DNA of 30,215 bases, from the IMG/VR virus record IMGVR_UViG_3300029930_000008, positions 1 through 30,215 of that record; one strand, written 5' to 3'. Under the pieces are notes generated by a model that saw only the letters and a program-made list of their open reading frames with translations, ran no database searches and was not told where the DNA came from. Source of the DNA: a virus. Its lineage: Duplodnaviria > Caudoviricetes. A program made the translations under genes and the position numbers. Every line of letters starts with the position of its first letter. Position 1 is the stretch's first letter. Shown in pieces: positions 2,822 to 24,136 of the stretch.

Positions 2822-4272
2822 TAGGCTACCTCACCAAAGGTTTGAAGGATATTAAGAAGATATGAGGCTGCTTCATCCTTTGTCTCAGGTTGTTGTAGCC
2901 ACATAGCCCGAGTTTCTGGATTAGTCTTAACAAGTTTATCAAAGTCTGCCTCATTCATAGTGCCTTTTTGCCCATTGTTTTTCAAAGCCTGCTGAATCAA
3001 AGGATTATTGACAGTAATAGATGTAGCAGCCATACCAGTAAGTTTTGATAATCTGTTTACAAACGGAGTAGCAATATCATAAGCGCTAATATCATCAGTG
3101 ATTACATCGCTTAGATTGCCATATTTAATCTGGGACAACTTAAGAATCTTATTCTTACTAGAATCCAAGGTTAAACCTTTGCGTAGATTCTCTCCGATAT
3201 AATCAATAGCATCTTGCTGTGTAAGTTCAACGCCATACTTATTAGCATAAGCAATAAGTTCATTAACGCTATCGGCAGCCTTAGCACCACTATTAATAAT
3301 CTTTTCTAGGTTGCTGCCTTTAATTGCTTTACCAGCAATTTTGCCTAGTAATAACAACTTATCCGTCTCACTGACTAGTTCGCCAGTTTCATTTTTGCTT
3401 ATTAATCTGCCTGAAGAATCATAGGTATTAGTAGTTTTAACTACATTTTCTTTTTCTAATTTTCTAAGTTCTAGATAGTAAGCATCTTCTTGTTCTTTGG
3501 TAGCACCGTAGCCAAAGTACTGCATAAAGTATCTATCAAGTTCTTCAGCAGCATCTTGCCGTAAAGTAGTAACAGAATTATAAAAAGGTTCAGAAGTAGG
3601 TTTACCTAGTCCACTATTACTACCTAGATAGTCAGTGAATCCACTTATCTGTTTCTGTCCACCGATAGTTATGCTATCTATTTGTTTAACGGAATAACTG
3701 CGGACAGCATAGGCTAATCCTTTATTAAACTCTTGACTAGAAATATCCTTTGAATCAAAGGTAGCCTTACTAATAAGACCAGAAGCGTACAAAGAAGAAA
3801 ATAATCCATTTATACCACCAGCAGTAGAGTTGGCATCTGACAAGATTTTGTTTCTGATTTTGTCATAATCATTATCTATTAAAACTTCATTGTTACCCTG
3901 AGGGTCTCGTTTAGGGCTTAAATAGATAAATACTTCAAGACCACTTGGGTCATTTACTACAGTCCCACCCTGGCTAGGGTTATAGGTAACTGCCAAACCT
4001 TTACTTAATATTTCTCCCGCAATACCAGTAGGTCCAGTAGGTCTTTTGCCTAAATCTACACCGCCGAAAGTAGGGTTTTCCTTTGCCTGTTTATCATATT
4101 CAACAGGGTCAACACCTAAAGGATAGAAGGCTCCATTTCTCATAAAACCAACTGCTTTTCCACTGGACTTATCAAAAACAACATCAACACTACCTGCTGG
4201 TATGTTTTTATCAATCCCTGGATTTAACACATTGGATATATACGTATTGTCGGGGCGTACTCCACCAGCCAT
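2821..4272 (-). CDS. Putative internal virion (ejection) protein, 483 aa
   Basis: TAATG-coupled to both neighbours in the virion operon. No catalytic motif recognised. Confidence 0.5.
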   Translation of the reverse strand: MAGGVRPDNTYISNVLNPGIDKNIPAGSVDVVFDKSSGKAVGFMRNGAFYPLGVDPVEYDKQAKENPTFGGVDLGKRPTGPTGIAGEILSKGLAVTYNPSQGGTVVNDPSGLEVFIYLSPKRDPQGNNEVLIDNDYDKIRNKILSDANSTAGGINGLFSSLYASGLISKATFDSKDISSQEFNKGLAYAVRSYSVKQIDSITIGGQKQISGFTDYLGSNSGLGKPTSEPFYNSVTTLRQDAAEELDRYFMQYFGYGATKEQEDAYYLELRKLEKENVVKTTNTYDSSGRLISKNETGELVSETDKLLLLGKIAGKAIKGSNLEKIINSGAKAADSVNELIAYANKYGVELTQQDAIDYIGENLRKGLTLDSSKNKILKLSQIKYGNLSDVITDDISAYDIATPFVNRLSKLTGMAATSITVNNPLIQQALKNNGQKGTMNEADFDKLVKTNPETRAMWLQQPETKDEAASYLLNILQTFGEVA

Positions 4273-7200
4273 TAGAATCCTTTCACAAATCTTGTGTAGG
4301 TGTCACGAGAATAGAAATTAAGTATTGACTTAAAAATTGCCCTGTCGGCTTCTTTAATAGTCAAATCACCTTCAATAAAGTCTGCAATCAAAGCCTCAAT
4401 TTCAGCCTTACGCTTGCGCTTTATCTCAGCAAAGTTAACCGATTCCCTTAACTGCGGGTCATTGGCTATATTAATAAAGTTTCTAATTTGTGCTGTCAGA
4501 ACTAGTAACTTACTTCTAGTAGCATCTTGAATTGGTATATCTGCATTGCCTAGCATTTCTTCTAGATTTGCAAACATAACCTGTTCAGTAGCAATCTCAT
4601 TACCTGTGCCTGTAATTGCTGCCTCAAGTAATGGGTTAGAAGCCTTCATAAGATTTCTCTGCTGTGTTGCCCTAGCAATGATTGCAGCACGGGCTGTAAT
4701 ACTAGGAGTATTAGCCAACTGTTCTTTTTCAATACGGGCAATATCATAGTAAGCCTGCTTATCACGGGCTACAGAAACATCCATATAGTACTTCTCAAGG
4801 TCTTTATTCTTAATAAAATCAGCAGCCTCAAGGTAGGCATAACTTGCAGAATCAAACTCTCCGGTATGTGGAGCAAAGATAAATGCTGCCTCACCATAAG
4901 TTTTAACTAGATTCTCATTGGCTATGTACCAATCTTTCATAGCCTTTGTTTTCTGAATTACAACCTGTGTCTGCTTTTCATCACGAGATACTGTATAAAT
5001 TAACTTATTAGGGTTTTGACCTACGAATGTAGCCACAGCCAAGTCATATGGGTCTTCAATATCCCCACCAAATTTCTTAGTTACTGCGTTCACTATGTCA
5101 TAAAACTCAGGACGTAGACCTGTTATACCTACATCTAGTAGGTAGTCAGGCACTCCCTTTGACTCCTGAACAGTTGGAGCAACTGGTGAAAACAGACCTA
5201 AAACAGAACGCATAACCATTATGTTATGTGCTGATATACGAACGTTCTTTAAATATTCAGCCTTTTCTGAAGCAGATGCATCAGGTGCTGGCGGATTGCC
5301 AAACGCTGCATTATAAGCAATAGCCTGCATAGCAGCCGTGCTCTCCTGTCTTGACTTCTCATTGACGGGTAGCGCTGCATATACTCTTTGTAGAGATGCA
5401 GGAACTAAAGCCTTGACTACTGTTATACCTTCACCAATAGTTCCTAGTGCCCAGGTATCTAATTCTTCGCCTAGTTGTTTACCGTATGTTCCAGCCTGTC
5501 CCAAGATGGCTTTCATACCCACAATACCCAAGGCTCCAATTGGTCCTGATAGTGATGGCATACCAGCATCAGGGCTAAATGAAGGGTTAATCAAGCGGAG
5601 TCTAAATGTAAAGTCATCAAATAATGGTTGTTTAAATGCTGAATCACCTAAACCAACAACTCTTGCTGCATTATCTACAGCCTTAAAGATGATGTCATCC
5701 ATTGGCATCATTACATAATCTTCGCCATTGGCATCTGTATAAACTTCACCAGAAGCCTGAAGACCAAGATGTGCTAAACGCATACGGAACATAGCCCGTA
5801 GTTTTACATCTCGGAGACGATAGATACGTCGCCAAAAATCTTCAGTTGCTCTATAAAAACGACCAGTATTGCGGACTGACATTGCAAAATTACTGCGGAT
5901 ATTTGGATTATCCACAAACTTTAATACTTCATCGGCAGCAAACTGCAATCCATATTCAGTAAACTTACGCTCTGTTAACTCAGTAGCATTTTTCTGAATT
6001 AGTTGGTACTCACGCTTGCCAACTTCACGACCACTTGCTGCTATCTGAGACAATCTAGAGTTAATTAATTGATTAACGTGCTGTCTTTCTAGACCTGCAA
6101 GGTTCTTTCTCCAGCGTAGATAGCCAATCATAACTGCAGGCTGGCGGAAGATAGCCATAACCTGACGGTCCATAATGTCCATCATCTCATTGCCTAGTTT
6201 TTTCCAGGCTGCCTCAATATCGGTTATGCCTTCTAGGTCTAAAGTTGTATACATTCTGCCCCGAGGATTCATACCTTTAGTTAAGTCAATGAATTCATCA
6301 GCAGTTACGCTCTGAACAGCCTTATTCCATTTGCCAGAGATATTAATACCCTGTGCTATCTCATCGGCTTCTAAAGTTCTATATGAAGTACGGATTCTAT
6401 CTAGCAATGCTGTATTAAATCCGTCTTTACTTCCGTGGAAAGCCTTGTAATAATCAAGAAGGATACGGTTAATCTGGTCTTTGGCTATATCAATATCATT
6501 CATACCACGGTTACGAAGAACTGTAGTGCGTTGTGACATAGTTAAGAAATCTTTTAGCGCTTCTGCATCATCAATCACATAGCCAAACTTAGGAACAGTA
6601 GCATCTACAAGTTCTTGGCTAACTTTTGCGGCTAGTTTTTCATTACGAACTATACCAACTTGGCGAAGTAAAGTATCTCTAGCCTTGGCAAAATCTGCTG
6701 TAGTCTCTAAAGCATTGTTATCAAAGAAGGCATTGACTGGATGAAATACTCCACGCTCTTTACCATTGATAATTCTAGTGTTACCATAGAAACGACGTAC
6801 CCAGTTTTGATAGTGAACCTTGGCAATTGGGTTATCGCCTAAACTTTGTGCTCTAGCAATCTCATCGGTGCTAAGAACTTTACCGCCTGTGCTTCTAGCA
6901 TCAATTGCTTTTAAGAAATCTTCATAGTTATTTAGACCAATCAATTCCTCTGCAACTTCAGGGGTCTGTCTTGCCGTCAAAGATGCTTTACCAGATACAG
7001 CACGGGCTGAACCTGTTAACAAATGTGTGTGATAAGCAAAGGCTTGCGCCACAAGACGCATCTCTTCATCAGTTAGACGAGATGGAATCATATCGTCAAT
7101 GGCTCTACCGCTAGCCAAAGCATATTCAAAGTTAAATACTGCTTCGTCAGATAGTCCAGTATCTTGAACTACTCTTTCACGAATGGCTTTACGCTGTGGA

Positions 7201-9395
7201 GTATCAAGTAACTCAGATGTTCTCTTACCAAAGATGCCACGGATGCTTTCTTTAACACCTTCAGCAGCCTTACTTCCTGTCCAAGCAGTAGCAAGTCTGC
7301 CCATTCTGTGCCCTTTACGGGCAAAGTATTGAAGAATGTCATTAGCAGGAGCGGTTAGTAAAAAGAAAAAACCTTCATCAATTGCGCTTCGCACACCAAG
7401 ACGAGGGAAAAGCGTAAGGATAGACCAAACGTTTACAAACTCAGAAGTAATTTTACCTTGAGTAGCACCCTTGCCTACCGCAGCAATCAAATCTTTCTTA
7501 GTTTTAATCTCAAATGCAGCCTGTCGTAGCAAGTTATAGTCAAGACTGCTAATTGCTTTAGCCTCTTGGAATGGATGGATAATGCTAGATGATTCATAAA
7601 GCAAATCACCATTATCATTCTTAAGGGCTACGCTATCAATCTCATCAACAAACTTACTTGGAACATCTAAACGGTCAACAATTGCTGCACCTTCAATGTT
7701 GGCAAAATGACTGTCTAAAGTTTTCTGAATAAGTTCACGACCTTTGGCTGTTCCATCTAGCCCATATCGCTGCATAATTGCAGTGTAAAGACTTTTTAGA
7801 ACTGCAACTTGGTCGTTAGCATCTGAGTTAATAAACTTATAAGTAACTAGGTCTGCTAAATCTCTAGGCAAAACCTGACGGGCAGTATCTCTAAATACAT
7901 CTGCAGTCTTAACTGCATCATCGCCCAACATAATATTGCGACCAAATGGTGTCCTACCAACTTGGCGAGCAATCTTTTCTTTACGAGACATTCCTTTATG
8001 GAATGCAAGAATGTCATCCATCAAAGGATGGAATGTTTCATCACCTTTACCTACATTTAGTAGGCTATCCCAGATGTCATCTCCAGCCTGCTGAATCTCA
8101 TCTAGCGAGCCATAAGAAGGATTAAAGAATCTATCAATTGCATTAGCAATTCCGCCTGTCAACATACGTTGATTGCGGGCAGTGGCAATACCATTTCTGA
8201 AGTACTGAGTACCTTCAACTCTACCAGCAAGCATATTGACTGCTGCATCTACATCATCGCTAAAAAACTTTATGGCAGAAGTAGAATCAAAGATTTCATT
8301 TCTATCAAGAAGCCGTAGCCATTCTTCATTGTCGTGTCCACGGTAAGTATCGCCAATCTCTCGGCGAATGGCTGTTTTCTCAGCCTCTGACTTAGCGCCA
8401 TTAAGGCGCTTGACCATTGGACCAATTTCACTATCCCAGTGTTTTGCTACTTCTGGATATTTAGCAAATACATCTTTGACTCCAGTACCGCCATACTTAA
8501 CAATACTTTCAGCCATCTGTTGCCCATTGGCTAGAGCACGAGAACCTAGTATTGGAATCTTTGAAGTACCAAATGTAACCCAAGTTAGTGGGTCAATAGC
8601 AATCTGATAAACAAGATTTATACCAGCAGATACGTTTTTTCCAAAAATCTTTTCTGGCGTAAAATAATCTGTATATAAATTATTGTTACTGCTTGTCGGC
8701 TTCTTCTCAAACATACGAGAAATATCATTGCCAGGATTTACCTGAGCATATTTAACCGCATCAAGAACTGTCTTGAACTCTTCTGGTTTATTAAATGCCT
8801 CTGATAAGGCATCAAGAAGTTTCTGGTCTAGTTGACCATAACCTTCAATAATCTCGCCAGGTTTCTTGCCAGCAATTAAACCCTTTGCTACTTCTACTTT
8901 TTCTTTTCCAAAATAGTTAGCAGCATCGGCTAAAAATTTATTATCAAATACTCTGCGACCATCCCACGCATCAGTAAATGTTTGTTTATTAAATAAGCCT
9001 TCACCTTGGGCAGCCTGTCTAGCAACCAAGTATGGTGTATTGATTATTCGGTTCCAAGCACCTGCTGCTTTGTATAATGCAATTAATGGGCTACCTAAAA
9101 ACTTTGCCGTACCTTTTACAACACCAATTGCTCTATCGCCTATAGTTGGTGGAGTAGCAGCATAGCCAGCATCGGGATAAAGAAACTTGAGCATACCTTG
9201 AACATCTTCATCAAGATTATCAAAAGCCTGCTTTGCCTGTTCATCAGATAGGCGCAACAGTTCTCTGTTCTTTTTGATAGTCCAACTAAACTGCTCAATT
9301 TGTGTTTTCTGAGTATTGTTTAAGTTAGCCTGTGATGCCGCCTTGTAAAGATTAGGACTTACTGTGGCTACAGCATAATTTAATTTCTGAGCCAT
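4272..9395 (-). CDS. Large putative internal virion/DNA-ejection protein, 1707 aa
   Basis: Very large ORF in the structural operon of a phage with no recognisable tape measure in this window, as expected for podoviral core proteins. Confidence 0.55.
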   Translation of the reverse strand: MAQKLNYAVATVSPNLYKAASQANLNNTQKTQIEQFSWTIKKNRELLRLSDEQAKQAFDNLDEDVQGMLKFLYPDAGYAATPPTIGDRAIGVVKGTAKFLGSPLIALYKAAGAWNRIINTPYLVARQAAQGEGLFNKQTFTDAWDGRRVFDNKFLADAANYFGKEKVEVAKGLIAGKKPGEIIEGYGQLDQKLLDALSEAFNKPEEFKTVLDAVKYAQVNPGNDISRMFEKKPTSSNNNLYTDYFTPEKIFGKNVSAGINLVYQIAIDPLTWVTFGTSKIPILGSRALANGQQMAESIVKYGGTGVKDVFAKYPEVAKHWDSEIGPMVKRLNGAKSEAEKTAIRREIGDTYRGHDNEEWLRLLDRNEIFDSTSAIKFFSDDVDAAVNMLAGRVEGTQYFRNGIATARNQRMLTGGIANAIDRFFNPSYGSLDEIQQAGDDIWDSLLNVGKGDETFHPLMDDILAFHKGMSRKEKIARQVGRTPFGRNIMLGDDAVKTADVFRDTARQVLPRDLADLVTYKFINSDANDQVAVLKSLYTAIMQRYGLDGTAKGRELIQKTLDSHFANIEGAAIVDRLDVPSKFVDEIDSVALKNDNGDLLYESSSIIHPFQEAKAISSLDYNLLRQAAFEIKTKKDLIAAVGKGATQGKITSEFVNVWSILTLFPRLGVRSAIDEGFFFLLTAPANDILQYFARKGHRMGRLATAWTGSKAAEGVKESIRGIFGKRTSELLDTPQRKAIRERVVQDTGLSDEAVFNFEYALASGRAIDDMIPSRLTDEEMRLVAQAFAYHTHLLTGSARAVSGKASLTARQTPEVAEELIGLNNYEDFLKAIDARSTGGKVLSTDEIARAQSLGDNPIAKVHYQNWVRRFYGNTRIINGKERGVFHPVNAFFDNNALETTADFAKARDTLLRQVGIVRNEKLAAKVSQELVDATVPKFGYVIDDAEALKDFLTMSQRTTVLRNRGMNDIDIAKDQINRILLDYYKAFHGSKDGFNTALLDRIRTSYRTLEADEIAQGINISGKWNKAVQSVTADEFIDLTKGMNPRGRMYTTLDLEGITDIEAAWKKLGNEMMDIMDRQVMAIFRQPAVMIGYLRWRKNLAGLERQHVNQLINSRLSQIAASGREVGKREYQLIQKNATELTERKFTEYGLQFAADEVLKFVDNPNIRSNFAMSVRNTGRFYRATEDFWRRIYRLRDVKLRAMFRMRLAHLGLQASGEVYTDANGEDYVMMPMDDIIFKAVDNAARVVGLGDSAFKQPLFDDFTFRLRLINPSFSPDAGMPSLSGPIGALGIVGMKAILGQAGTYGKQLGEELDTWALGTIGEGITVVKALVPASLQRVYAALPVNEKSRQESTAAMQAIAYNAAFGNPPAPDASASEKAEYLKNVRISAHNIMVMRSVLGLFSPVAPTVQESKGVPDYLLDVGITGLRPEFYDIVNAVTKKFGGDIEDPYDLAVATFVGQNPNKLIYTVSRDEKQTQVVIQKTKAMKDWYIANENLVKTYGEAAFIFAPHTGEFDSASYAYLEAADFIKNKDLEKYYMDVSVARDKQAYYDIARIEKEQLANTPSITARAAIIARATQQRNLMKASNPLLEAAITGTGNEIATEQVMFANLEEMLGNADIPIQDATRSKLLVLTAQIRNFINIANDPQLRESVNFAEIKRKRKAEIEALIADFIEGDLTIKEADRAIFKSILNFYSRDTYTRFVKGF

Positions 9396-11931: not shown

Positions 11932-13818
11932 CTATCCGTAGGTATCTTGCCATTGCTCGGCAACCACATCATCAATGTTAATCGTATAGCGTCTTTCCTT
12001 CTGTGCTCTAGTAGCCCAGCGGTTATTCGCCCACTTTTGTAGATTAGAATTTTGTTGCATAAACTCACGGCATCGGAGTACCCCGAACCATAAAGCCATC
12101 ACACAGTCAGTCTTACCTCTAGTGCTTGGTTTCCAAGTCAATAGTTGTTGGACTAAAGCCTTGAGTCCCTCAGAACCTTCAGTGCTTGGTAACTCCAATA
12201 TGTTGTTTTTTTGGAACTTTCCTTCTCGGGTTGTTCCGAAAAGTGTAGACATTGAAGCGACTCCGAAGTTTGTGTCCCATTTGTTCTTGCCTGTAAAGTG
12301 AGCATTAATCCGTACGCCGTATGAAGCAAGCCAGTTTCGTAGGTCATCGTCAAGGGCGTATGCTTTTTGGTGCGCATTGATTTCAACTCGGAACTCTTGC
12401 GGTTTATAAACCTGAGTAAATGCTTCAATTGTCTCCCTAATCTTTTGCGGTGTTGGTTCTGACATATTCAAACAATCCAACACATAAATCTTGCCATCTG
12501 CTTTATTGAACGTCATAGCAACAAACGCAGCGTTCCCAGCCATTGCAGGGTCAAAACCAACAACGGTATATCCCTCAACCCTTTGAGGATGTCCAGCAGC
12601 ACCAGGACGTAAGTTGCCCTTTTTGCGCATACCGTTGATAGAACCTTGCACTAATTCAGCAGGGAAGATTGAATCTTCAACTACATCTTCCTGCTGGTAA
12701 ACCAGTGCCCAGGTAGATGGAGTTACTTCACCTCTGCGTCGCGCAAGGGTTGGTCCGTCCCATTTGGGAAATAATCCTTCTTCGTCAGGAACATCATCAT
12801 CCCCATCCCACGGAGCGTCCGACTTTGCCCATAGGGTTTTCCAGTCTTTAGTATCTTCCGCATACTCCAAGACAGCAGGCATACCCATATAAGTAAATGG
12901 GCTTTTACCCCCTGACCAATGCTTCGGGTCACGGAGTTCTTTATAGAAATCAGTTGGCGCAATTCTTGTTCCCACCACTAACAACTTACCGTTTTTACCT
13001 AAACGGGTAATAACTTCTTTTTGCAGCCAATTGATTTGCTTCTCATACTCGTGAGCATTGGCGGTAGTAATACAGTCATCTAAAATTATTAGGTCGGCAC
13101 GGGCACCGTAGATTTGACCACCCATACCGAGTGCCTGGATAGTCGGGTCCTTCTCTGATGAATTACGGGCATCACTTCCCAAGTAGACGGTATCAACACG
13201 CCAGGTATCAGAGTCTTCTTTCCATCCCCCTTCTGGTCCAAATGTTGTTTGCAACTTTAACCAGCGCGGGTGGCTTAACCTTTGTTTGATTGCGTACACG
13301 AATTCCCGTGCTTTGACTAACGTCTTAGAAACTACGATGATTCTAACGTTGGGGTTTAGCGCGATGCGATATGTAGAGTAGTTCACCGTGATAACGGTGG
13401 ACTTAGCGTGCTCAGGCGGCACGTTCACAAGAAGGCGATTTGGGTCGCCCTTCTCATAAATCATATTTGGGTGGAGCCAAGATGGCTCCCGTCCTTCTAA
13501 CAGGTCTACCCAATCTTGGTGATGGGGAAAGACCCTTTGCTCTAGGAACATTTCAGAAAATTGCGGAAAGGATATCTCGTCCCTGGATATCCCTAAAGCC
13601 GTAAGGCTGCGCTCTTTAGCGTCTTCTTTTGCTTGGGCAAGGTCTGCTGCAAACTTCTTGTCCCGCATCATCCAGATTCTTATGGTGTCTGGTTGCTTAC
13701 CCACCTCAGCCATTGCTTTGTGGGGAGCCCAACCTTCAGAAACAAGGGCTATTACTTTAGCCTTTGCTGCTGCCATAGCCTCTGTTCTAGGGTTGTTACT
13801 TCCCTTCTGAAAAGTCAC
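11932..13818 (-). CDS. terL: Terminase large subunit with N-terminal HTH-like extension
   Basis: Walker A-like VPPEHAKST, GGQIYGARADLIILDD (Walker B), coupling motif VGTR, RNase H-like nuclease VGFDPA...TDCVMALW. Confidence 0.93.
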   Translation of the reverse strand: MTFQKGSNNPRTEAMAAAKAKVIALVSEGWAPHKAMAEVGKQPDTIRIWMMRDKKFAADLAQAKEDAKERSLTALGISRDEISFPQFSEMFLEQRVFPHHQDWVDLLEGREPSWLHPNMIYEKGDPNRLLVNVPPEHAKSTVITVNYSTYRIALNPNVRIIVVSKTLVKAREFVYAIKQRLSHPRWLKLQTTFGPEGGWKEDSDTWRVDTVYLGSDARNSSEKDPTIQALGMGGQIYGARADLIILDDCITTANAHEYEKQINWLQKEVITRLGKNGKLLVVGTRIAPTDFYKELRDPKHWSGGKSPFTYMGMPAVLEYAEDTKDWKTLWAKSDAPWDGDDDVPDEEGLFPKWDGPTLARRRGEVTPSTWALVYQQEDVVEDSIFPAELVQGSINGMRKKGNLRPGAAGHPQRVEGYTVVGFDPAMAGNAAFVAMTFNKADGKIYVLDCLNMSEPTPQKIRETIEAFTQVYKPQEFRVEINAHQKAYALDDDLRNWLASYGVRINAHFTGKNKWDTNFGVASMSTLFGTTREGKFQKNNILELPSTEGSEGLKALVQQLLTWKPSTRGKTDCVMALWFGVLRCREFMQQNSNLQKWANNRWATRAQKERRYTINIDDVVAEQWQDTYG

Positions 13819-13843
13819 AGACCTATCCCATCTACAAACTATT

Positions 13844-13988
13844 ACTGATAGTACAGACAGTTAGAACAGCCTGTTAGAAACAGACTGAATTACAGTATTG
13901 TAACGGAAGCCCTAAAGGGCTTCCTACTATCAGTGGGCACTTTGTGCCCCTATATAGTATTAATCCGTTCAAACAGCCAATCCGAACG
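13844..13988. repeat. Cluster of inverted repeats upstream of terL (candidate late promoter/leader or packaging region)
   Basis: ACTGATAGTA/TACTATCAGT (13844/13925), GGAAGCCCT/AGGGCTTCC (13905-13924), GGGCAC/GTGCCC (13935-13949), CGTTC..GAACG (13966-13988). Confidence 0.6.
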
Positions 13989-14090
13989 CTTTTATGGCAA
14001 AATGTAATGTAACTCACAGAATAGACCATACCAAAATAGGACATATTAGGGCAGTGCAGGGGGCTAATAGTTTGTACCAGAAAATCTTTT

Positions 14091-14100
14091 TGAGAGTGTA
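14091..14100 (+). repeat. 10-bp direct repeat TGAGAGTGTA, left copy
   Basis: Identical to 15422-15431. Confidence 0.7.
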
Positions 14101-14111
14101 CTGTATAACTC

Positions 14112-14748
14112 TCAGCCAGTTTATAAACCGTAGGGTCATTTAGACCCTACAGGTTTATGGCTACGCCCTGATGGTTCCTGTTACAGTGCGCTGTTCAGGG
14201 CTAACTATCTGGCTGGCTGATAGGGGCGCTGAGTAGAACAGTTTAGATAAATAGAAATGCTGGCTCAACGAGCCCATTTCTGTTTATCTGTTCTGGCTCC
14301 CCGCAAAACAAGGTTGTCTTTTCAGCCTTTGTTTTGCCGGAGCGGAACACCAGAAACAAGCCAAGGACTGAGTGGCTTTTGTTTCTGATTTTGTGTTCCA
14401 TCAGTCAGCACCGGAAACTAGCCCCCGCAAGGTTGCTTCGGCTCGCTGTTCCGAGCAGAGGATAGCAACGCTGGACGCTGTGAGCAGTGTCCTGTGAGGG
14501 GCTATGAAATCTGCTCTATCCTCACATTTCTGCGCCCGATTTCGCGTCTTTGCGAAATCCTGAGCACTGCCGCTCTTAGCGGTCTGCTCTGATTTCTGAC
14601 CGAAAGTTCGGGCTTGTCAGGATGGAGCACTTCGGTTCCATTTTCTGACAACCTGCCTTCTGCCGCACGGGCTGTGAACTTGGCAGCCTACCACGCAAGC
14701 GTGGTTTTTGGGCTGCCGTTCACGCACCGTGCGTGACAGAAAGCAGGT
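14112..14748 (+). ncRNA. Candidate large structured non-coding RNA or leader (~640 nt; could instead be folded ssDNA)
   Basis: Nine or more back-to-back stem-loops and multibranch domains, with recurrent G.T pairs on the + strand and no credible ORF. Confidence 0.65.
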
Positions 14749-14753
14749 AGAAA

Positions 14754-15104
14754 ATGAAACACGAAGTATCCTTCCAAGCAGCCGAACTTTCCGGTCTGGA
14801 AATCAAGACCGCAAAGAACGGCAAGGATTACGCAAAGGGCGTAATCGTTCTTAGAAATGATGAGGGCAGATTTCAAGCATCCCTCCCATTCCTCTGCTTC
14901 ACAGCAGCGGTTGCTAACCTCCGCTCCTTGGAACAGCAGGAGCACTCAGCCGACCTTGTCGGTGGAGTTTCCGTTACTGAGGCTGATGGAACTAAATCAG
15001 AAGCCAAAGAGCCACGCCCTGTGGCTAATGTTTCTGGCTGGTTCCGCACCAGCAAAACTGAAAAAGGCTGGACAACCTCGTTTATGGTGGAGAGCCTGAA
15101 CTAG
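14754..15104 (+). CDS. SSB/PriB-like OB-fold protein (putative)
   Basis: Alternating beta-strand pattern (LEIKTAKNGKDYAKGVIV; VANVSGWFRT; TSFMVESL); similar to 16483-16788; followed by a terminator. Confidence 0.55.
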   Translation: MKHEVSFQAAELSGLEIKTAKNGKDYAKGVIVLRNDEGRFQASLPFLCFTAAVANLRSLEQQEHSADLVGGVSVTEADGTKSEAKEPRPVANVSGWFRTSKTEKGWTTSFMVESLN

Positions 15105-15109
15105 ATAAG

Positions 15110-15140
15110 AAAAGGGCTGGTGTTGAGCCAGCCCTTTTTT
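15110..15140 (+). terminator. Intrinsic terminator
   Basis: AAAAGGGCTGG-tgttgag-CCAGCCCTTTTTT just after the stop at 15104. Confidence 0.75.
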
Positions 15141-15184
15141 ATTATCTAAATGTTCTGGCTTCCTTTATGACTGATGTCCTAGCC

Positions 15185-15417
15185 ATCTCCTTACCATCAG
15201 GCGTAGCCTATCGTTGGCAAACGATAGCAAGGTTACCCAATGATGGTATTGAGATTCAAAAGAATCCTGAGTGTCTTACGAGTCCAATGAGATTAGGTAA
15301 GAGAGCGCACCAAACTACCACAGGCAGGCATACCCGCCGTCAAGTGGTCGCTCCTGATAGCAACGATGGCTCGCACTTGACTGCGGTGCCAGCCTGTGGT
15401 GAGAGAAAAGCGCTCTC
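15185..15417 (+). ncRNA. Second structured non-coding domain (three long stem-loops)
   Basis: Stems 15185-15255, 15268-15298 and 15301-15417 (GAGAGCGC/GCGCTCTC, ACCACAGGC/GCCTGTGGT, GTCAAGTG/CACTTGAC). Confidence 0.55.
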
Positions 15418-15421
15418 AAGG

Positions 15422-15431
15422 TGAGAGTGTA
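15422..15431 (+). repeat. 10-bp direct repeat TGAGAGTGTA, right copy
   Basis: Identical to 14091-14100. Confidence 0.7.
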
Positions 15432-15451
15432 GGTAGATAAAGGAGATTGAT

Positions 15452-15631
15452 ATGTTGAAAGATTGGTTTATAATAGGTGCTAGATTATGTTGTAATTGTA
15501 AGGTTGATATAGATGTAAAGAATGAAGGTATTGATTGTGAAGATTTAGGTAAAGAACATAAGTGGCACAATGATAGTTGGGAAGATATGTGTTGCGTATG
15601 TGGTAGAGATTACGAAATGTTATATAAATAA
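15452..15631 (+). CDS. Small Cys-rich hypothetical protein (59 aa)
   Basis: SD AAAGGAG; MLKDWFIIGARLCCNCK...MCCVCGRDYEMLYK with two CxxC-type pairs. Confidence 0.75.
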   Translation: MLKDWFIIGARLCCNCKVDIDVKNEGIDCEDLGKEHKWHNDSWEDMCCVCGRDYEMLYK

Positions 15632-15639
15632 AGGAGACT

Positions 15640-15909
15640 ATGATGAAAGTATATAAAAGAGGCAGTGAGCCTAAAGGTTGTACCTATGTTGGTAGAGGTA
15701 GTGATTGGGGTAATCCTTTTAGGATTGGATATGATGGTACAAGAGCCGAAGTTATTAGTAAGTTCAGGCTCTATGCTATACAAAGAATAGCAAAGCAGAA
15801 AGATTGGCTAGTGCCGTTAGTTGGCAAAGACTTGGTGTGTCATTGTGCGCCCAAGGCTTGTCACGGAGATGTTATTATTGAACTTATTAGAGACCTACGA
15901 ATCGGATAG
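15640..15909 (+). CDS. DUF4326-family protein
   Basis: YVGRGSDWGNPF...LVGKDLVCHCAPKACHGDVI family signature. Confidence 0.85.
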   Translation: MMKVYKRGSEPKGCTYVGRGSDWGNPFRIGYDGTRAEVISKFRLYAIQRIAKQKDWLVPLVGKDLVCHCAPKACHGDVIIELIRDLRIG

Positions 15910-15963
15910 CCCTGACAACGGGTGCCAGGGCTATCCTCACAACGATATATAAAGGAGACTAAA

Positions 15964-16404
15964 ATGAAAGAAGTTGTGGAAGTATCTAATGGTATGGCAA
16001 TTGTAACAAGTTGTTATGATTGTCAGACTTTATCCGACTATGAACTGAAGTGTAGAGTTTGTGACGAGTCGGATGAGGCTAGAGTAGATGAGTTAGCCTG
16101 GAGTCACAGGGCTGATGAACGCTTGGCAGAAGATGATGTGATTACTGATATCAAAGAAGAACCATCTGGCTCAGACTGGATTGGTAGTGAGACAAGAGTC
16201 AAAGGTAGTAAGCGTATTCGCAGTGAGTTCAAGCCTAGTACCTATGACCTGCGAGATAGATGTCCAAGTACTTACTTCCTAGGTAGTCATATCTTTGATT
16301 TAGATGAAGATGAGGGACGTTCTCGGATTCATATGTTTGAAATAGTATGCCCAAAATGTAACTTGGTGTATCCTAAACGAACAGGTTGTTTAGAATGTAA
16401 GTAG
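15964..16404 (+). CDS. Hypothetical Zn-binding protein
   Basis: ATG 15964 after AAAGGAGACTA; four CxxC pairs. Confidence 0.75.
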   Translation: MKEVVEVSNGMAIVTSCYDCQTLSDYELKCRVCDESDEARVDELAWSHRADERLAEDDVITDIKEEPSGSDWIGSETRVKGSKRIRSEFKPSTYDLRDRCPSTYFLGSHIFDLDEDEGRSRIHMFEIVCPKCNLVYPKRTGCLECK

Positions 16405-16482
16405 TTTGTATAGCGGTTCCCGCCCGCAGGCGAGGCGGGAGACCGCTCCAAGATAAATATAAACAATATAAAGGAGACAGAA

Positions 16483-16788
16483 ATGAATACAGTACAAGTA
16501 ACAGGTTATATCAAGAATGTTCAGGAGCGAGGCTCTGGTAACTACAAGGTTATAACTGCAAACCTTAGCCAACGAAATGATGAAGGCAAGTGTGTCTTTA
16601 CAATGCCGTTGGTGTTTACTTCTCCAGATACCAAGAATACATTGGCTAATGTTTCTTGGGTTGATGGAGTATCACAAGTCGTAACACTAACTGGAAGATT
16701 AGTTACACGATTTGACCGCCGACCAGGGATTGATAATTCTGAGCGTCGCGCACCTTATACACAGATAGAAGTTGTATCTGTAAACTAA
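16483..16788 (+). CDS. Single-stranded DNA-binding-like OB-fold protein
   Basis: MNTVQVTGYI...VTLTGRLVTRF...YTQIEVVSV matches the SSB pattern (MNxVxLxG; VxGxLxxR; TxIxV). No acidic tail. Confidence 0.7.
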   Translation: MNTVQVTGYIKNVQERGSGNYKVITANLSQRNDEGKCVFTMPLVFTSPDTKNTLANVSWVDGVSQVVTLTGRLVTRFDRRPGIDNSERRAPYTQIEVVSVN

Positions 16789-22966: not shown

Positions 22967-23303
22967 CGCAGCCAAACGCAAAGGTAGCCAAGCAGAACGA
23001 GATGTTGTTGCTTGGTTGAAGGCTAATGGTTACAAGTATGCAGACCGCAGACTTGCAGGAGCAACCTTAGACAAAGGCGATATAAGCGGTGTGCCAGGTG
23101 TAACTATTGAGATTAAGAATCACGCCAAAATGGACCTTGCAGGATGGCTAGCAGAACTAGAAGTTGAAATGAAAAATGATAATGCCTGGACAGGTGTTGT
23201 CTTACATAAACGAAAAGGGAAAGGAGACGTAGGCGAATGGTATGCAACTATGCCTGCAAAAGTATGGTTGGCATTGCTGAATCAAGCAGATGGAAAAACA
23301 TAG
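22959..23303 (+). CDS. Holliday junction resolvase (Hjc-like PD-(D/E)XK)
   Basis: KRKGSQAERDV...DKGDI...IEIKN. Confidence 0.8.
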   Translation: MSSAAKRKGSQAERDVVAWLKANGYKYADRRLAGATLDKGDISGVPGVTIEIKNHAKMDLAGWLAELEVEMKNDNAWTGVVLHKRKGKGDVGEWYATMPAKVWLALLNQADGKT

Positions 23304-23682
23304 CATTGAAGCATATTTAAATTATATTGGCGCCACCGTGCCCTCCCGTGGACACGGCTGGCGCAAAATAAAATGTCCGTTTCATTCAGATAAACACGCA
23401 TCAGCAGGTGTTAACTTTGATGAAGGAAGATTCAAGTGCCACGGATGTGGTGTTGGCGGAGATGTATACGATTTGATAATGTACAAGGAAGGAGGTAACT
23501 ATCGTGAGGCTGTCAAATTCGCAGAGACAATTTCTCCTACAGGCAACTCAAGAGTACGCCCAGCACATACATCAAGCAGCAGATTATCTGGCAACTCGGG
23601 GTCTGTCGGTAGAAGAAGCCAAGAGATTTCATTTAGGAGTAGTGGACAATCCATTGCCAGGACACGAAGGCTACAAGGGTAA
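23290..23682 (+). CDS. DNA primase zinc-binding (CHC2) subunit
   Basis: CPFHSDKHASA...FKCHGCGVGGDVYDLI. Confidence 0.85.
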   Translation: MEKHSIEAYLNYIGATVPSRGHGWRKIKCPFHSDKHASAGVNFDEGRFKCHGCGVGGDVYDLIMYKEGGNYREAVKFAETISPTGNSRVRPAHTSSSRLSGNSGSVGRRSQEISFRSSGQSIARTRRLQG

Positions 23683-24136
23683 GTTAGTAATACCTTACAT
23701 AACACCGTCAGGTGTAGTAGACATTCGGTTCCGCAGTATCAATGGAGAGGACCCGAAGTACATTGGTTTGCCAGGAGCAAAGACTTCAATGTATAACGCA
23801 CAAGCAGTGCTAACAGCAGAAGGTTATATCTGCGTCACTGAAGGTGAGATAGATTCTATAACAACAATAGTAAAGACTGGACACCCAGCAGTTGGTATTC
23901 CAGGTGCTAATAATTGGAAGCCACATTACACAAAAATACTTGATGATTTTGAAACAGTTATTGTATTAGCAGATGGTGATGCACCAGGGCTAGAGTTTGG
24001 TAAAAAGATTAGTAGAGAATTAGGCAATGTAAATATAGTTCAAATGCCAGAAGGACACGATGTAAATAGCATTGTGCTACAAGAAGGAGGCGAGTGGTTA
24101 AATGAGCGGATTAGAAAATGTTTTTCGGGACAATGA
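23504..24136 (+). CDS. DNA primase TOPRIM subunit
   Basis: YLATRGL, VTEGEID, ADGDAPG, DVN motifs; own SD GGAGGT before GTG 23504. Confidence 0.88.
   Translation: MRLSNSQRQFLLQATQEYAQHIHQAADYLATRGLSVEEAKRFHLGVVDNPLPGHEGYKGKLVIPYITPSGVVDIRFRSINGEDPKYIGLPGAKTSMYNAQAVLTAEGYICVTEGEIDSITTIVKTGHPAVGIPGANNWKPHYTKILDDFETVIVLADGDAPGLEFGKKISRELGNVNIVQMPEGHDVNSIVLQEGGEWLNERIRKCFSGQ

Follow-up and report, generated by a model that had tools for sequence, protein, structure and literature searches.

The locus between the late and early arms

The window analyzed here is a 30.2-kb phage record (all 30,215 nucleotides of the stretch from IMGVR_UViG_3300029930_000008), in which the late arm, with the genes for the terminase large subunit (terL) and the portal protein, runs leftward and the early arm runs rightward. 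[quoted passage not shown] A first-pass annotation had described this island as a direct-repeat-bounded region of stem-loops with one credible gene. Most of it is indeed folded, as 76% of 14091-15431 is paired in the minimum free energy structure. The main structure is a single imperfect rod of about 920 nucleotides (nt; 14235-15156, apex at 14696-14699), in which the ribosome site of SSB1, its entire open reading frame (ORF; 14754-15104) and its terminator are paired with an upstream non-coding antisense arm. The rod is followed by a second structured element, hairpin 2. The features of the locus are as follows:

11932-13818, minus strand: terL, first gene of the leftward late arm (phrog_38, E 4e-66)
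14073-14101, no strand assigned: TGTAC..GTAC boundary motif, conserved in rod-bearing and rod-less relatives
14099-14205, no strand assigned: putative short direct terminal repeat of about 105 bp with a conserved GGGTC hairpin (14123-14158), suggested by contigs and by synteny with Streptomyces cluster BF phages
14235-14695, minus strand: non-coding arm, a degenerate inverted copy of ribosome site, gene and terminator (folds, alignments)
14685-14693, minus strand: extended -10-like box TG-n-TAGGCT in the 3' arm beside the apex, its gene-side copy broken by a bulge (sequence, fold)
14690-14705, minus strand: rod apex with the minus-strand loop CTTG (fold)
14754-15104, plus strand: SSB1, OB-fold protein of 116 aa that lacks an acidic C-terminal tail (AlphaFold, pLDDT 80.8; Foldseek)
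15114-15140, plus strand: intrinsic-terminator-like hairpin with T run, mirrored at 14245-14289 (sequence)
15157-15300, no strand assigned: variable spacer made up of short hairpins; in relatives, hairpin 2 lies 232-567 nt from the SSB stop
15301-15417, minus strand: hairpin 2, candidate Frpo-like promoter (fold, boxes, covariation)
15422-15431, plus strand: right copy of the direct repeat TGAGAGTGTA, not conserved in relatives
15452-15631, plus strand: first early gene, 59 aa, Cys-rich, starting downstream of hairpin 2
16483-16788, plus strand: SSB2, another SSB-like gene, not included in the rod (local similarity to SSB1 is weak)

A gene-length rod

Sliding 200-nt windows compared with shuffled sequences (8 each) reached z scores of -22.8 (plus strand) and -12.9 (minus strand) at 14601, where the window median was about -1. 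With DNA parameters, the energy of the rod amounts to -296.7 kcal/mol on the plus strand and -315.6 kcal/mol on the minus strand, compared with about -137 kcal/mol for 12 shuffles (z -28.7 and -65.3, respectively), and its 337 long-range pairs have a mean probability of 0.94. The five hairpin arm pairs that had been listed within the coding region exist (14792/14806, 14826/14839, 14949/14958, 15010/15021 and 15037/15048), but local stem-loops do not form the main structure: with pairs limited to at most 60 nt, the energy is -193.1 instead of -315.6 kcal/mol. The view of a single credible gene among local folds missed the gene-length rod, the promoter-like boxes and SSB2. The claimed contrast in GC content between two 60-nt segments was recovered exactly (35/60 versus 16/60), the GC content of the island being 0.51 versus 0.42, and the abrupt right end was likewise confirmed, as folding and GC content fall beyond approximately 15420. 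The non-coding arm pairs with 72-84% of the gene in nine representatives and is predicted to serve as a surrogate partner strand.

Loci for comparison were fetched by SSB1 and by terL. The rod was recovered in every aligned SSB1 locus with sufficient flank (32 non-duplicate sequences in one comparison, 12 clade representatives in another and three loci at 37% identity in a third). At 37% protein identity the rod is kept with -409 kcal/mol for the template and -375 kcal/mol for the coding strand. No surrounding DNA locus was obtained for the most distant SSB1 homologues (P0037 and P0024), and the rod is traced down to 37% identity. In all 12 representatives, the best score of an arm is the one against its own gene, and between clades an arm resembles its own gene more closely than it resembles the arms of other clades. 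A 24-nt deletion in the gene is matched by a deletion in the arm in loci L003-L008. The longest perfect helix measures 10-13 bp, which in 8 of 9 cases is shorter than random placement of the same interruptions would give (P<0.03, to which the alignment scoring may add bias), and unpaired gene positions are spread evenly over the three codon positions (212/243/232). Because helix length is capped at 10-13 bp and the unpaired codon positions are even, the rod is a maintained, deliberately imperfect duplex that reflects selection and not decay. Compensatory substitutions and indels accompany the conservation of both the rod and hairpin 2.

Among 80 terL loci, 70 were analyzed (10 lacked the gene start) and 45 had at least 900 nt of flank. 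Long sequences could not be ranked by the self-alignment score, which was too permissive for this and was used only beside tblastn calls of SSB1. In 13 of 14 rod-less terL loci, a 200-nt window with z <=-5 is found in the same zone, a rough measure based on 5 shuffles.

The favored strand

The first-pass annotation had placed G.T pairs repeatedly on the plus strand and taken this strand to be selected for folding. Comparison of the loci reversed this claim. Written in plus-strand letters, the rod mismatches of the 32 non-duplicate loci are C.T (495), A.C (289), G.T (92) and A.G (64), counts that stem from related and not from independent sequences; among the representatives, A.C exceeds G.T in 10 of 12 and C.T exceeds G.A in 11 of 12. 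G.A and G.T are the better-tolerated mismatches, and given the excess of C.T and A.C in plus-strand letters they lie on the minus strand. With DNA parameters, the minus strand also folds to a lower energy than the plus strand in all nine representatives. SSB1 and the early genes have this favored strand as their template. With the minus strand being the favored one, the earlier option of a large plus-strand ribonucleoprotein lacks support.

The apex loops and the pair composition bear on the kind of molecule that folds. Loops of the cGNAg type have a special stability that is specific to DNA. Among 22 minus-strand apex loops, six are cGNAg, nine contain CTTG, CCTG or TTTA and seven are of other kinds; CTTG, CCTG and TTTA are described as type II DNA loops (PMC9975016). 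G.T makes up approximately 3% of the rod pairs on the better strand (289 versus 10,466 Watson-Crick pairs). The mismatches, the loops and the low G.T share would point to single-stranded DNA (ssDNA) rather than RNA.

Promoter-like boxes in hairpin 2 and at the apex

Promoter-like boxes are present on the 3' arms of the favored strand. In hairpin 2, TTGACG (15343-15338) is paired in the stem and TAGTTT (15317-15312) lies in an open bubble; the spacer between them has 20 nt, including a 3-nt bulge, and the template side spans 17 nt. All 22 distinct copies of hairpin 2 have TAnnnT on the minus-strand 3' arm, with an own-strand spacer of 19-21 nt in 21 copies and of 16 nt in one, and the template side measures 16-17 nt in all 20 copies scored. 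Read rightward as double-stranded DNA, 0 of 22 copies have a -10 box. The -35 and -10 boxes are properly arranged only when the hairpin is folded and the bulge trims the spacer to 16-17 nt. Covariation was detected on a structure taken from the same alignment: 12 of 24 pairs are changed on both sides, and 96% of cells are paired compared with 28-52% in slid controls. The start of the first early gene lies 62-73 nt beyond the TTGAC of hairpin 2 in 29 of 29 listed variants.

The extended -10-like box at the rod apex has counterparts in other loci, namely TATAAT in L015 and L042, TTGATA-16-TATGAT in L016 and TTGACG-16-TATGCT in L101 and L106. A bulge or mismatch is found at or next to these apex -10 boxes. 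A scan of terL-upstream regions yielded 15 folded TTGAY..TAnnnT hairpins on the minus strand versus four, poorer ones on the plus strand, and eight of the 15 belong to rod-less relatives. In the rod-less loci L083, L102, L114, L119, L124, L125, L126 and L146, different hairpins occur on the minus strand, in which TTGAC is paired and the spacer is short or open; these are possibly further classes of ssDNA promoters.

Two side observations concern the surroundings of hairpin 2. Hairpins have come and gone among relatives in the spacer that separates the SSB terminator from the early genes, and an extra 200-nt imperfect inverted repeat is located there in relative G001 (L155:13284-13485). The cargo at the first early slot varies as well; by Pfam it is DUF4326 in several relatives, NADAR in one relative, or a small Cys-rich protein. 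In L015 (3670-4245), the NADAR-domain gene is the first cargo after hairpin 2. NADAR reverses the DarT modification of ssDNA, which would suggest a cargo suited to a single-stranded stage. Plasmid leading regions carry ssb and anti-defense genes on the strand that folds; an SSB gene is present here, and NADAR and DUF4326 may or may not have an anti-defense role.

The probable early genome end

The closest cultured terL sequences are those of the Streptomyces cluster BF podoviruses (about 46% identity). These phages (Beephvirinae, including FlowerPower and Immanuel3) have terL at one genome end and early genes that run inward from the other. Their repeat begins 620-680 bp before terL, and their end lies about 1.4 kb of non-coding sequence before the first inward-facing early gene. 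Direct terminal repeats of 253 bp (PMC9753666) and 265 bp (PMC13097060) are described in the literature, and 253 and 275 bp were measured here. By synteny, the BF end zone matches the island in position and size.

Contig ends were analyzed for the same region. Among 52 truncated terL contigs that stop within 4 kb, nine end 360-385 nt from terL, where 0.34 would be expected if ends were uniform; these nine ends correspond to window positions 14203-14217 and occur in five sequence types. Three contigs end at the identical base with differing C/T tails, and such tails are expected of a 3'-tailing library at a physical end. Contig starts fall at the window equivalents of 14101 and 14105 (two contigs) and at 14055-14057 (two others). 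On visual comparison, the TGTAC..GTAC motif is similar to the junction at the BF end that was set by experiment, and it may form the inner edge of the terminal repeat, which would put the early genome end at about 14099-14102. Contigs and synteny thus suggest a direct terminal repeat from about 14100 to about 14205, and with this placement the left boundary drawn in the first-pass annotation would approximate the early genome end. The island site is likely the early end of the genome, with the 3' end of the minus strand near 14100. An entering genome end akin to the ssDNA promoters of plasmid leading regions had been one of the options proposed earlier, and it is favored by BF synteny, by the contig ends at approximately 14205 and by the Frpo-like hairpins. 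The related option of a terminal repeat spanning the whole island is disfavored, as contig depth over the island is flat rather than doubled (9.7 versus 7.5-10.5 in run X1 and 12.8 versus 8.4-13.3 in run X4). These depth checks, like those of joints and termini, were made on contigs, and X1 and X4 are possibly from the same source as the window DNA.

SSB1 and SSB2

The assignment of the ORF at 14754-15104 to the SSB-type OB folds was upheld by structure prediction. The best Foldseek matches of the SSB1 model are bacterial SSBs (E 3.5e-5, TM 0.51-0.62), with an OB fold like that of SsbA and SsbB. The model ends at the last strand, so that the acidic tail is absent, and SSB1 has no match in Pfam or PHROG. 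Twenty homologues share 53-97% identity and show in-frame indels; further ones are more distant. On the basis of the model, SSB1 would bind ssDNA. SSB2 shares the RNDEG motif with SSB1 and is present in 10 of 10 SSB1-bearing terL loci; RNA contigs cover it in two of four runs. In the rod-less relative G004, the SSB2 slot holds a different small protein (L157:5075-5398).

Relation to known systems

Coliphage N4 has template-strand hairpin promoters at its entering end that depend on ssDNA and SSB and have cGNAg-type loops, features that the hairpins described here would share. N4 is described as using its own virion polymerase of 3,500 residues, whereas the boxes found here are of the host sigma type and the 1707-aa virion protein of this phage has no Pfam or PHROG match. 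The ssoA-type origins of rolling-circle plasmids are also long imperfect DNA hairpins read by host RNA polymerase; they are, however, non-coding and much shorter, and no rolling-circle initiator was recognized in this phage. Obelisks and viroid-like rod RNAs resemble the island in that a rod of about 1 kb pairs an ORF with the rest of the molecule, as far as they are described (PMC10827157), but they are free circular RNAs, whereas the rod described here lies in phage DNA contigs beside terL, encodes an OB-fold SSB and has DNA-type signatures.

The Frpo promoters of plasmid leading regions were compared in the same way. In the available descriptions, Frpo folds from ssDNA, rebuilds -10 and -35 boxes, drives ssb and is switched off on conversion to duplex (PMC9849209, PMC11541004, PMC12672017), and Frpo2 of the F plasmid drives ssb from ssDNA (PMC9849209). 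Like the Frpo and ssi elements of the F and ColIb-P9 leading regions in these descriptions, the island has imperfect template-strand hairpins that would rebuild such boxes upstream of ssb and early genes. The F template strand upstream of ssb, folded here, forms a long bulged hairpin of similar build, in which the box pattern found no match. DUF932 occurs in the F leading region and also in the early arm of this phage. The setting differs, as a tailed double-stranded DNA (dsDNA) phage has no conjugative supply of ssDNA, and so does the extent of folding: only the promoter folds in Frpo, whereas here the whole coding region and the terminator have a partner arm. A blastn search of the island against 72,556 plasmids (E 0.01) gave no match and hence no homology to Frpo or ssi, and no match was obtained by blastn among annotated phage records. 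No relaxase family was found among 30 ORFs in a general scan, which did not include a search aimed at relaxases. The context is that of a podovirus (terL, portal, helicase and primase) and not of an oriT-adjacent plasmid leading region. By analogy, the element appears to work like an Frpo-controlled leading region without being a member of that group, given the lack of homology and of a conjugation context.

Literature searches, in which the top-ranked results were considered and subscription papers mostly lay outside, found no ssDNA promoter or gene-length DNA rod in such a dsDNA phage. The promoter part would be a known kind in a new setting, and the gene-length surrogate partner strand is without precedent in the literature searched. 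In contrast to the island, the terminal non-coding region of cluster BF shows no unusual folding, and no gene is annotated in it.

Neighboring features and relatives

Approximately 420 terL relatives are present in IMG/VR. The host is probably a freshwater actinobacterium, because WhiB is encoded by two complete relatives and the closest cultured terminases come from Streptomyces cluster BF. The early arm carries, by Pfam and PHROG, DUF4326, DUF932, an exonuclease, a DnaB-like helicase, a split primase and a sigma-like factor. The primase is divided into overlapping ORFs for a zinc-finger part (23290-23682) and a Toprim part (23504-24136), as it is in relatives G001 and G004. The 1707-aa protein (4272-9395) is a probable ejection protein without a Pfam or PHROG match; the nearest named Atlas cluster contains LPD38 (0.92), which is a lead only. 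A virion RNA polymerase as reader of the hairpins was considered for this protein and rejected, since it has no family match and hits unnamed clusters apart from the LPD38 lead.

A CGTTC..GAACG inverted motif (13966-13988), about 150 nt upstream of terL, is strongly conserved in all clades viewed and could serve in packaging or as a site for a regulator. GC-rich hairpins that are strong but lack T tails are located directly before early-operon ribosome sites (15904-15936 and 16414-16447) and are possible RNA processing sites. The terL segment 13150-13450 has a high summed contig depth in four of four RNA runs and in most DNA runs, which probably derives from many related phages sharing this conserved stretch. 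An 85-codon ORF (15167-15424) was rejected as a gene: it is frameshifted in a near-identical relative, and elsewhere only its last 20 codons, which form a hairpin arm, match.

Proposed mechanism

With moderate confidence, we interpret the island as a gene cassette that is activated when its DNA is single-stranded and that lies at the early end of a podovirus genome. In the proposed sequence of events, the plus strand would be removed or displaced over the first approximately 1.3 kb, upon which the minus strand folds into the rod and hairpin 2. The folds would rebuild host-type promoters, from which host RNA polymerase transcribes the SSB gene and the first early genes; the boxes would act as Frpo-type promoters with predicted starts near 14721 and 15412. 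From the apex, transcription would proceed rightward on the duplex of gene template and arm and stop at 15114-15140, and SSB mRNA would be released. The arm would stand in for the non-template strand, so that the gene is read as a duplex and the terminator works. Transcription from hairpin 2 would run on into ordinary duplex, and this would explain why the fold ends at about 15420 and why an arm exists only for the SSB gene. The interruptions, which occur every ~5 bp, may prevent the repeat from recombining or extruding in dsDNA, and the same interruptions would let SSB or the returning plus strand melt the folds, resulting in self-shutoff. The exposure of the strand is the least certain step. 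Within this explanation, host enzymes that resect the entering end 5'-to-3' or unwind it come first by a small lead, a gap that end replication or strand displacement leaves behind is nearly as plausible, and a tail that is already single-stranded in the virion is the outsider. A bolder version, which we regard as tentative and on balance doubtful, holds that this phage clade purposely lets its entering end be stripped to one strand as the start signal of infection; the 3' tail would then self-assemble a kilobase shield, promoters and a complete surrogate partner for a gene that could be transcribed only as long as its DNA is single-stranded, and the product would switch the gene off.

Several observations weigh against the cassette. 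No strand-exposing enzyme was identified, and the single-stranded stage is itself a prediction. SSB1 and the rod occur in only 10 of the 45 long-flank terL relatives, a relative at 62% terL identity is not folded in this region, and neither are the ends of cultured BF phages, where z is mostly between -2 and +2 with one window at -6.6. In L001 the gene retains 24 nt that are absent from its arm. With RNA parameters, the plus strand is favored in L004 (-683 versus -670) and L014 (-718 versus -717), and one RNA contig covers the arm (14269-14525) in one of four runs. The apex boxes in L016, L101 and L110 have an own-strand spacer of 15-16 nt and could fire leftward from duplex DNA. The search behind the box counts for hairpin 2 included TTGAC in its pattern and accepted a -10 box at any of 10 spacer lengths, and its 22 copies are kin to one another. 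A conventional promoter, TTGATA-16-TATAAT, is located at 15447-15474 and overlaps the first early ORF; of 10 loci checked, only two have it, and a third has the weaker TTGGTT-17-TATGTT. Finally, the cluster of contig ends could be an assembly break at the boundary between conserved and variable sequence.

Alternative explanations

The island could instead be a device for replication or end repair, in which the folded minus strand resembles a single-strand origin, primers made by host RNA polymerase at the hairpin promoters turn a displaced or unreplicated terminal strand into duplex, or the folds steer duplication of the terminal repeat during packaging, with SSB being secondary. Frpo has also been reported to prime DNA synthesis (Masai and Arai 1997, as given in citing work). 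Matches to the Pol A, B and C families were found in 0 of 5 near-complete relatives each (G001, G002, G003, G004 and G006; 37-40 kb), all of which carry a DnaB-like helicase and primase. Having no polymerase match of their own, these relatives apparently depend on host polymerase and would face the end problem. The minus strand would be the lagging template for a fork arriving at this end, and the GC skew turns at about 14000-15200, although this flip also tracks gene orientation. Priming, however, needs no gene-length rod; hairpin 2 is followed, at a constant distance of 62-73 nt, by a ribosome site and the start of a gene; and rightward primers would leave the terminal 600 nt uncopied. We regard this explanation as improbable, if the foremost of the alternatives.

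An RNA as the folded molecule appears slightly less probable still. One form would be a transcript in which the ribosome site and coding region of SSB are hidden inside a rod, so that the gene is silenced or metered; the other would be a minus-strand leader or antisense RNA started from leftward boxes in dsDNA. Such a reading gains from the RNA contigs over the arm and, in two of four runs and with unreadable strand, over the SSB1 ORF; these runs consist of contigs with small shares that were chosen by similarity, give neither strand nor level, may include DNA carry-over and are uninformative for uncovered parts. Terminator-like hairpins are present at both rod ends, CUUG is stable as an RNA loop as well, and in some clades the spacing of the apex boxes is right for reading leftward. 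On the other hand, the favored strand is antisense to the SSB gene, G.T contributes so few of the rod pairs and cGNAg triloops recur. Hairpin 2 contains its own promoter boxes, which would be absent from any transcript started by them and whose spacer is right only in the folded state. A search of Rfam 15 gave no match at gathering score and, by E-value, just sub-threshold unrelated matches.

That the SSB gene was long ago duplicated in inverted form and its copies kept alike by gene conversion, without function of the fold, is very unlikely: the arm is a degenerate inverted copy that includes the terminator and conversion can yield concerted evolution, but the mismatches are strand-biased and mainly C.T and not the symmetric transition types, which already largely refutes this reading, and moreover helices are capped in length, third codon positions show no excess of unpaired sites, and neither hairpin 2 nor the folded regions of rod-less relatives duplicate a gene. 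The excisable ssDNA circle proposed by the first-pass annotation, a satellite bounded by TGAGAGTGTA, or a kilobase cohesive or repeated end over the whole island is hardly to be expected either. The repeat exists in the window as exact copies at 14091 and 15422, the island is GC-richer and patchily distributed, and many SSB1 homologues are on short contigs; but the pair is confined to this window (10 of 10 relatives share at most 4-7 nt at the boundaries), contigs bridge both copies at flat depth without a 15431-14091 joint, SSB1 always adjoins terL where the flank is long enough, and late-side contigs stop near 14205 and not at 15430. In the region 13500-16000, 13 ten-mer repeat pairs were observed versus 4.3 in shuffles, and the right copy is likely a chance match to the left one.

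Implications

Single-stranded promoters are known mainly from conjugative plasmids, which travel as single strands, and it is not obvious why a tailed dsDNA phage would possess them. If the interpretation as a single-strand-activated cassette is true, a common group of freshwater phages has an unrecognized single-stranded stage at its genome end, and host end-resection may serve as a trigger instead of being blocked. With the gene-length arm, natural evolution would then have produced a covarying DNA fold almost a kilobase in size and a new route to gene expression from ssDNA.

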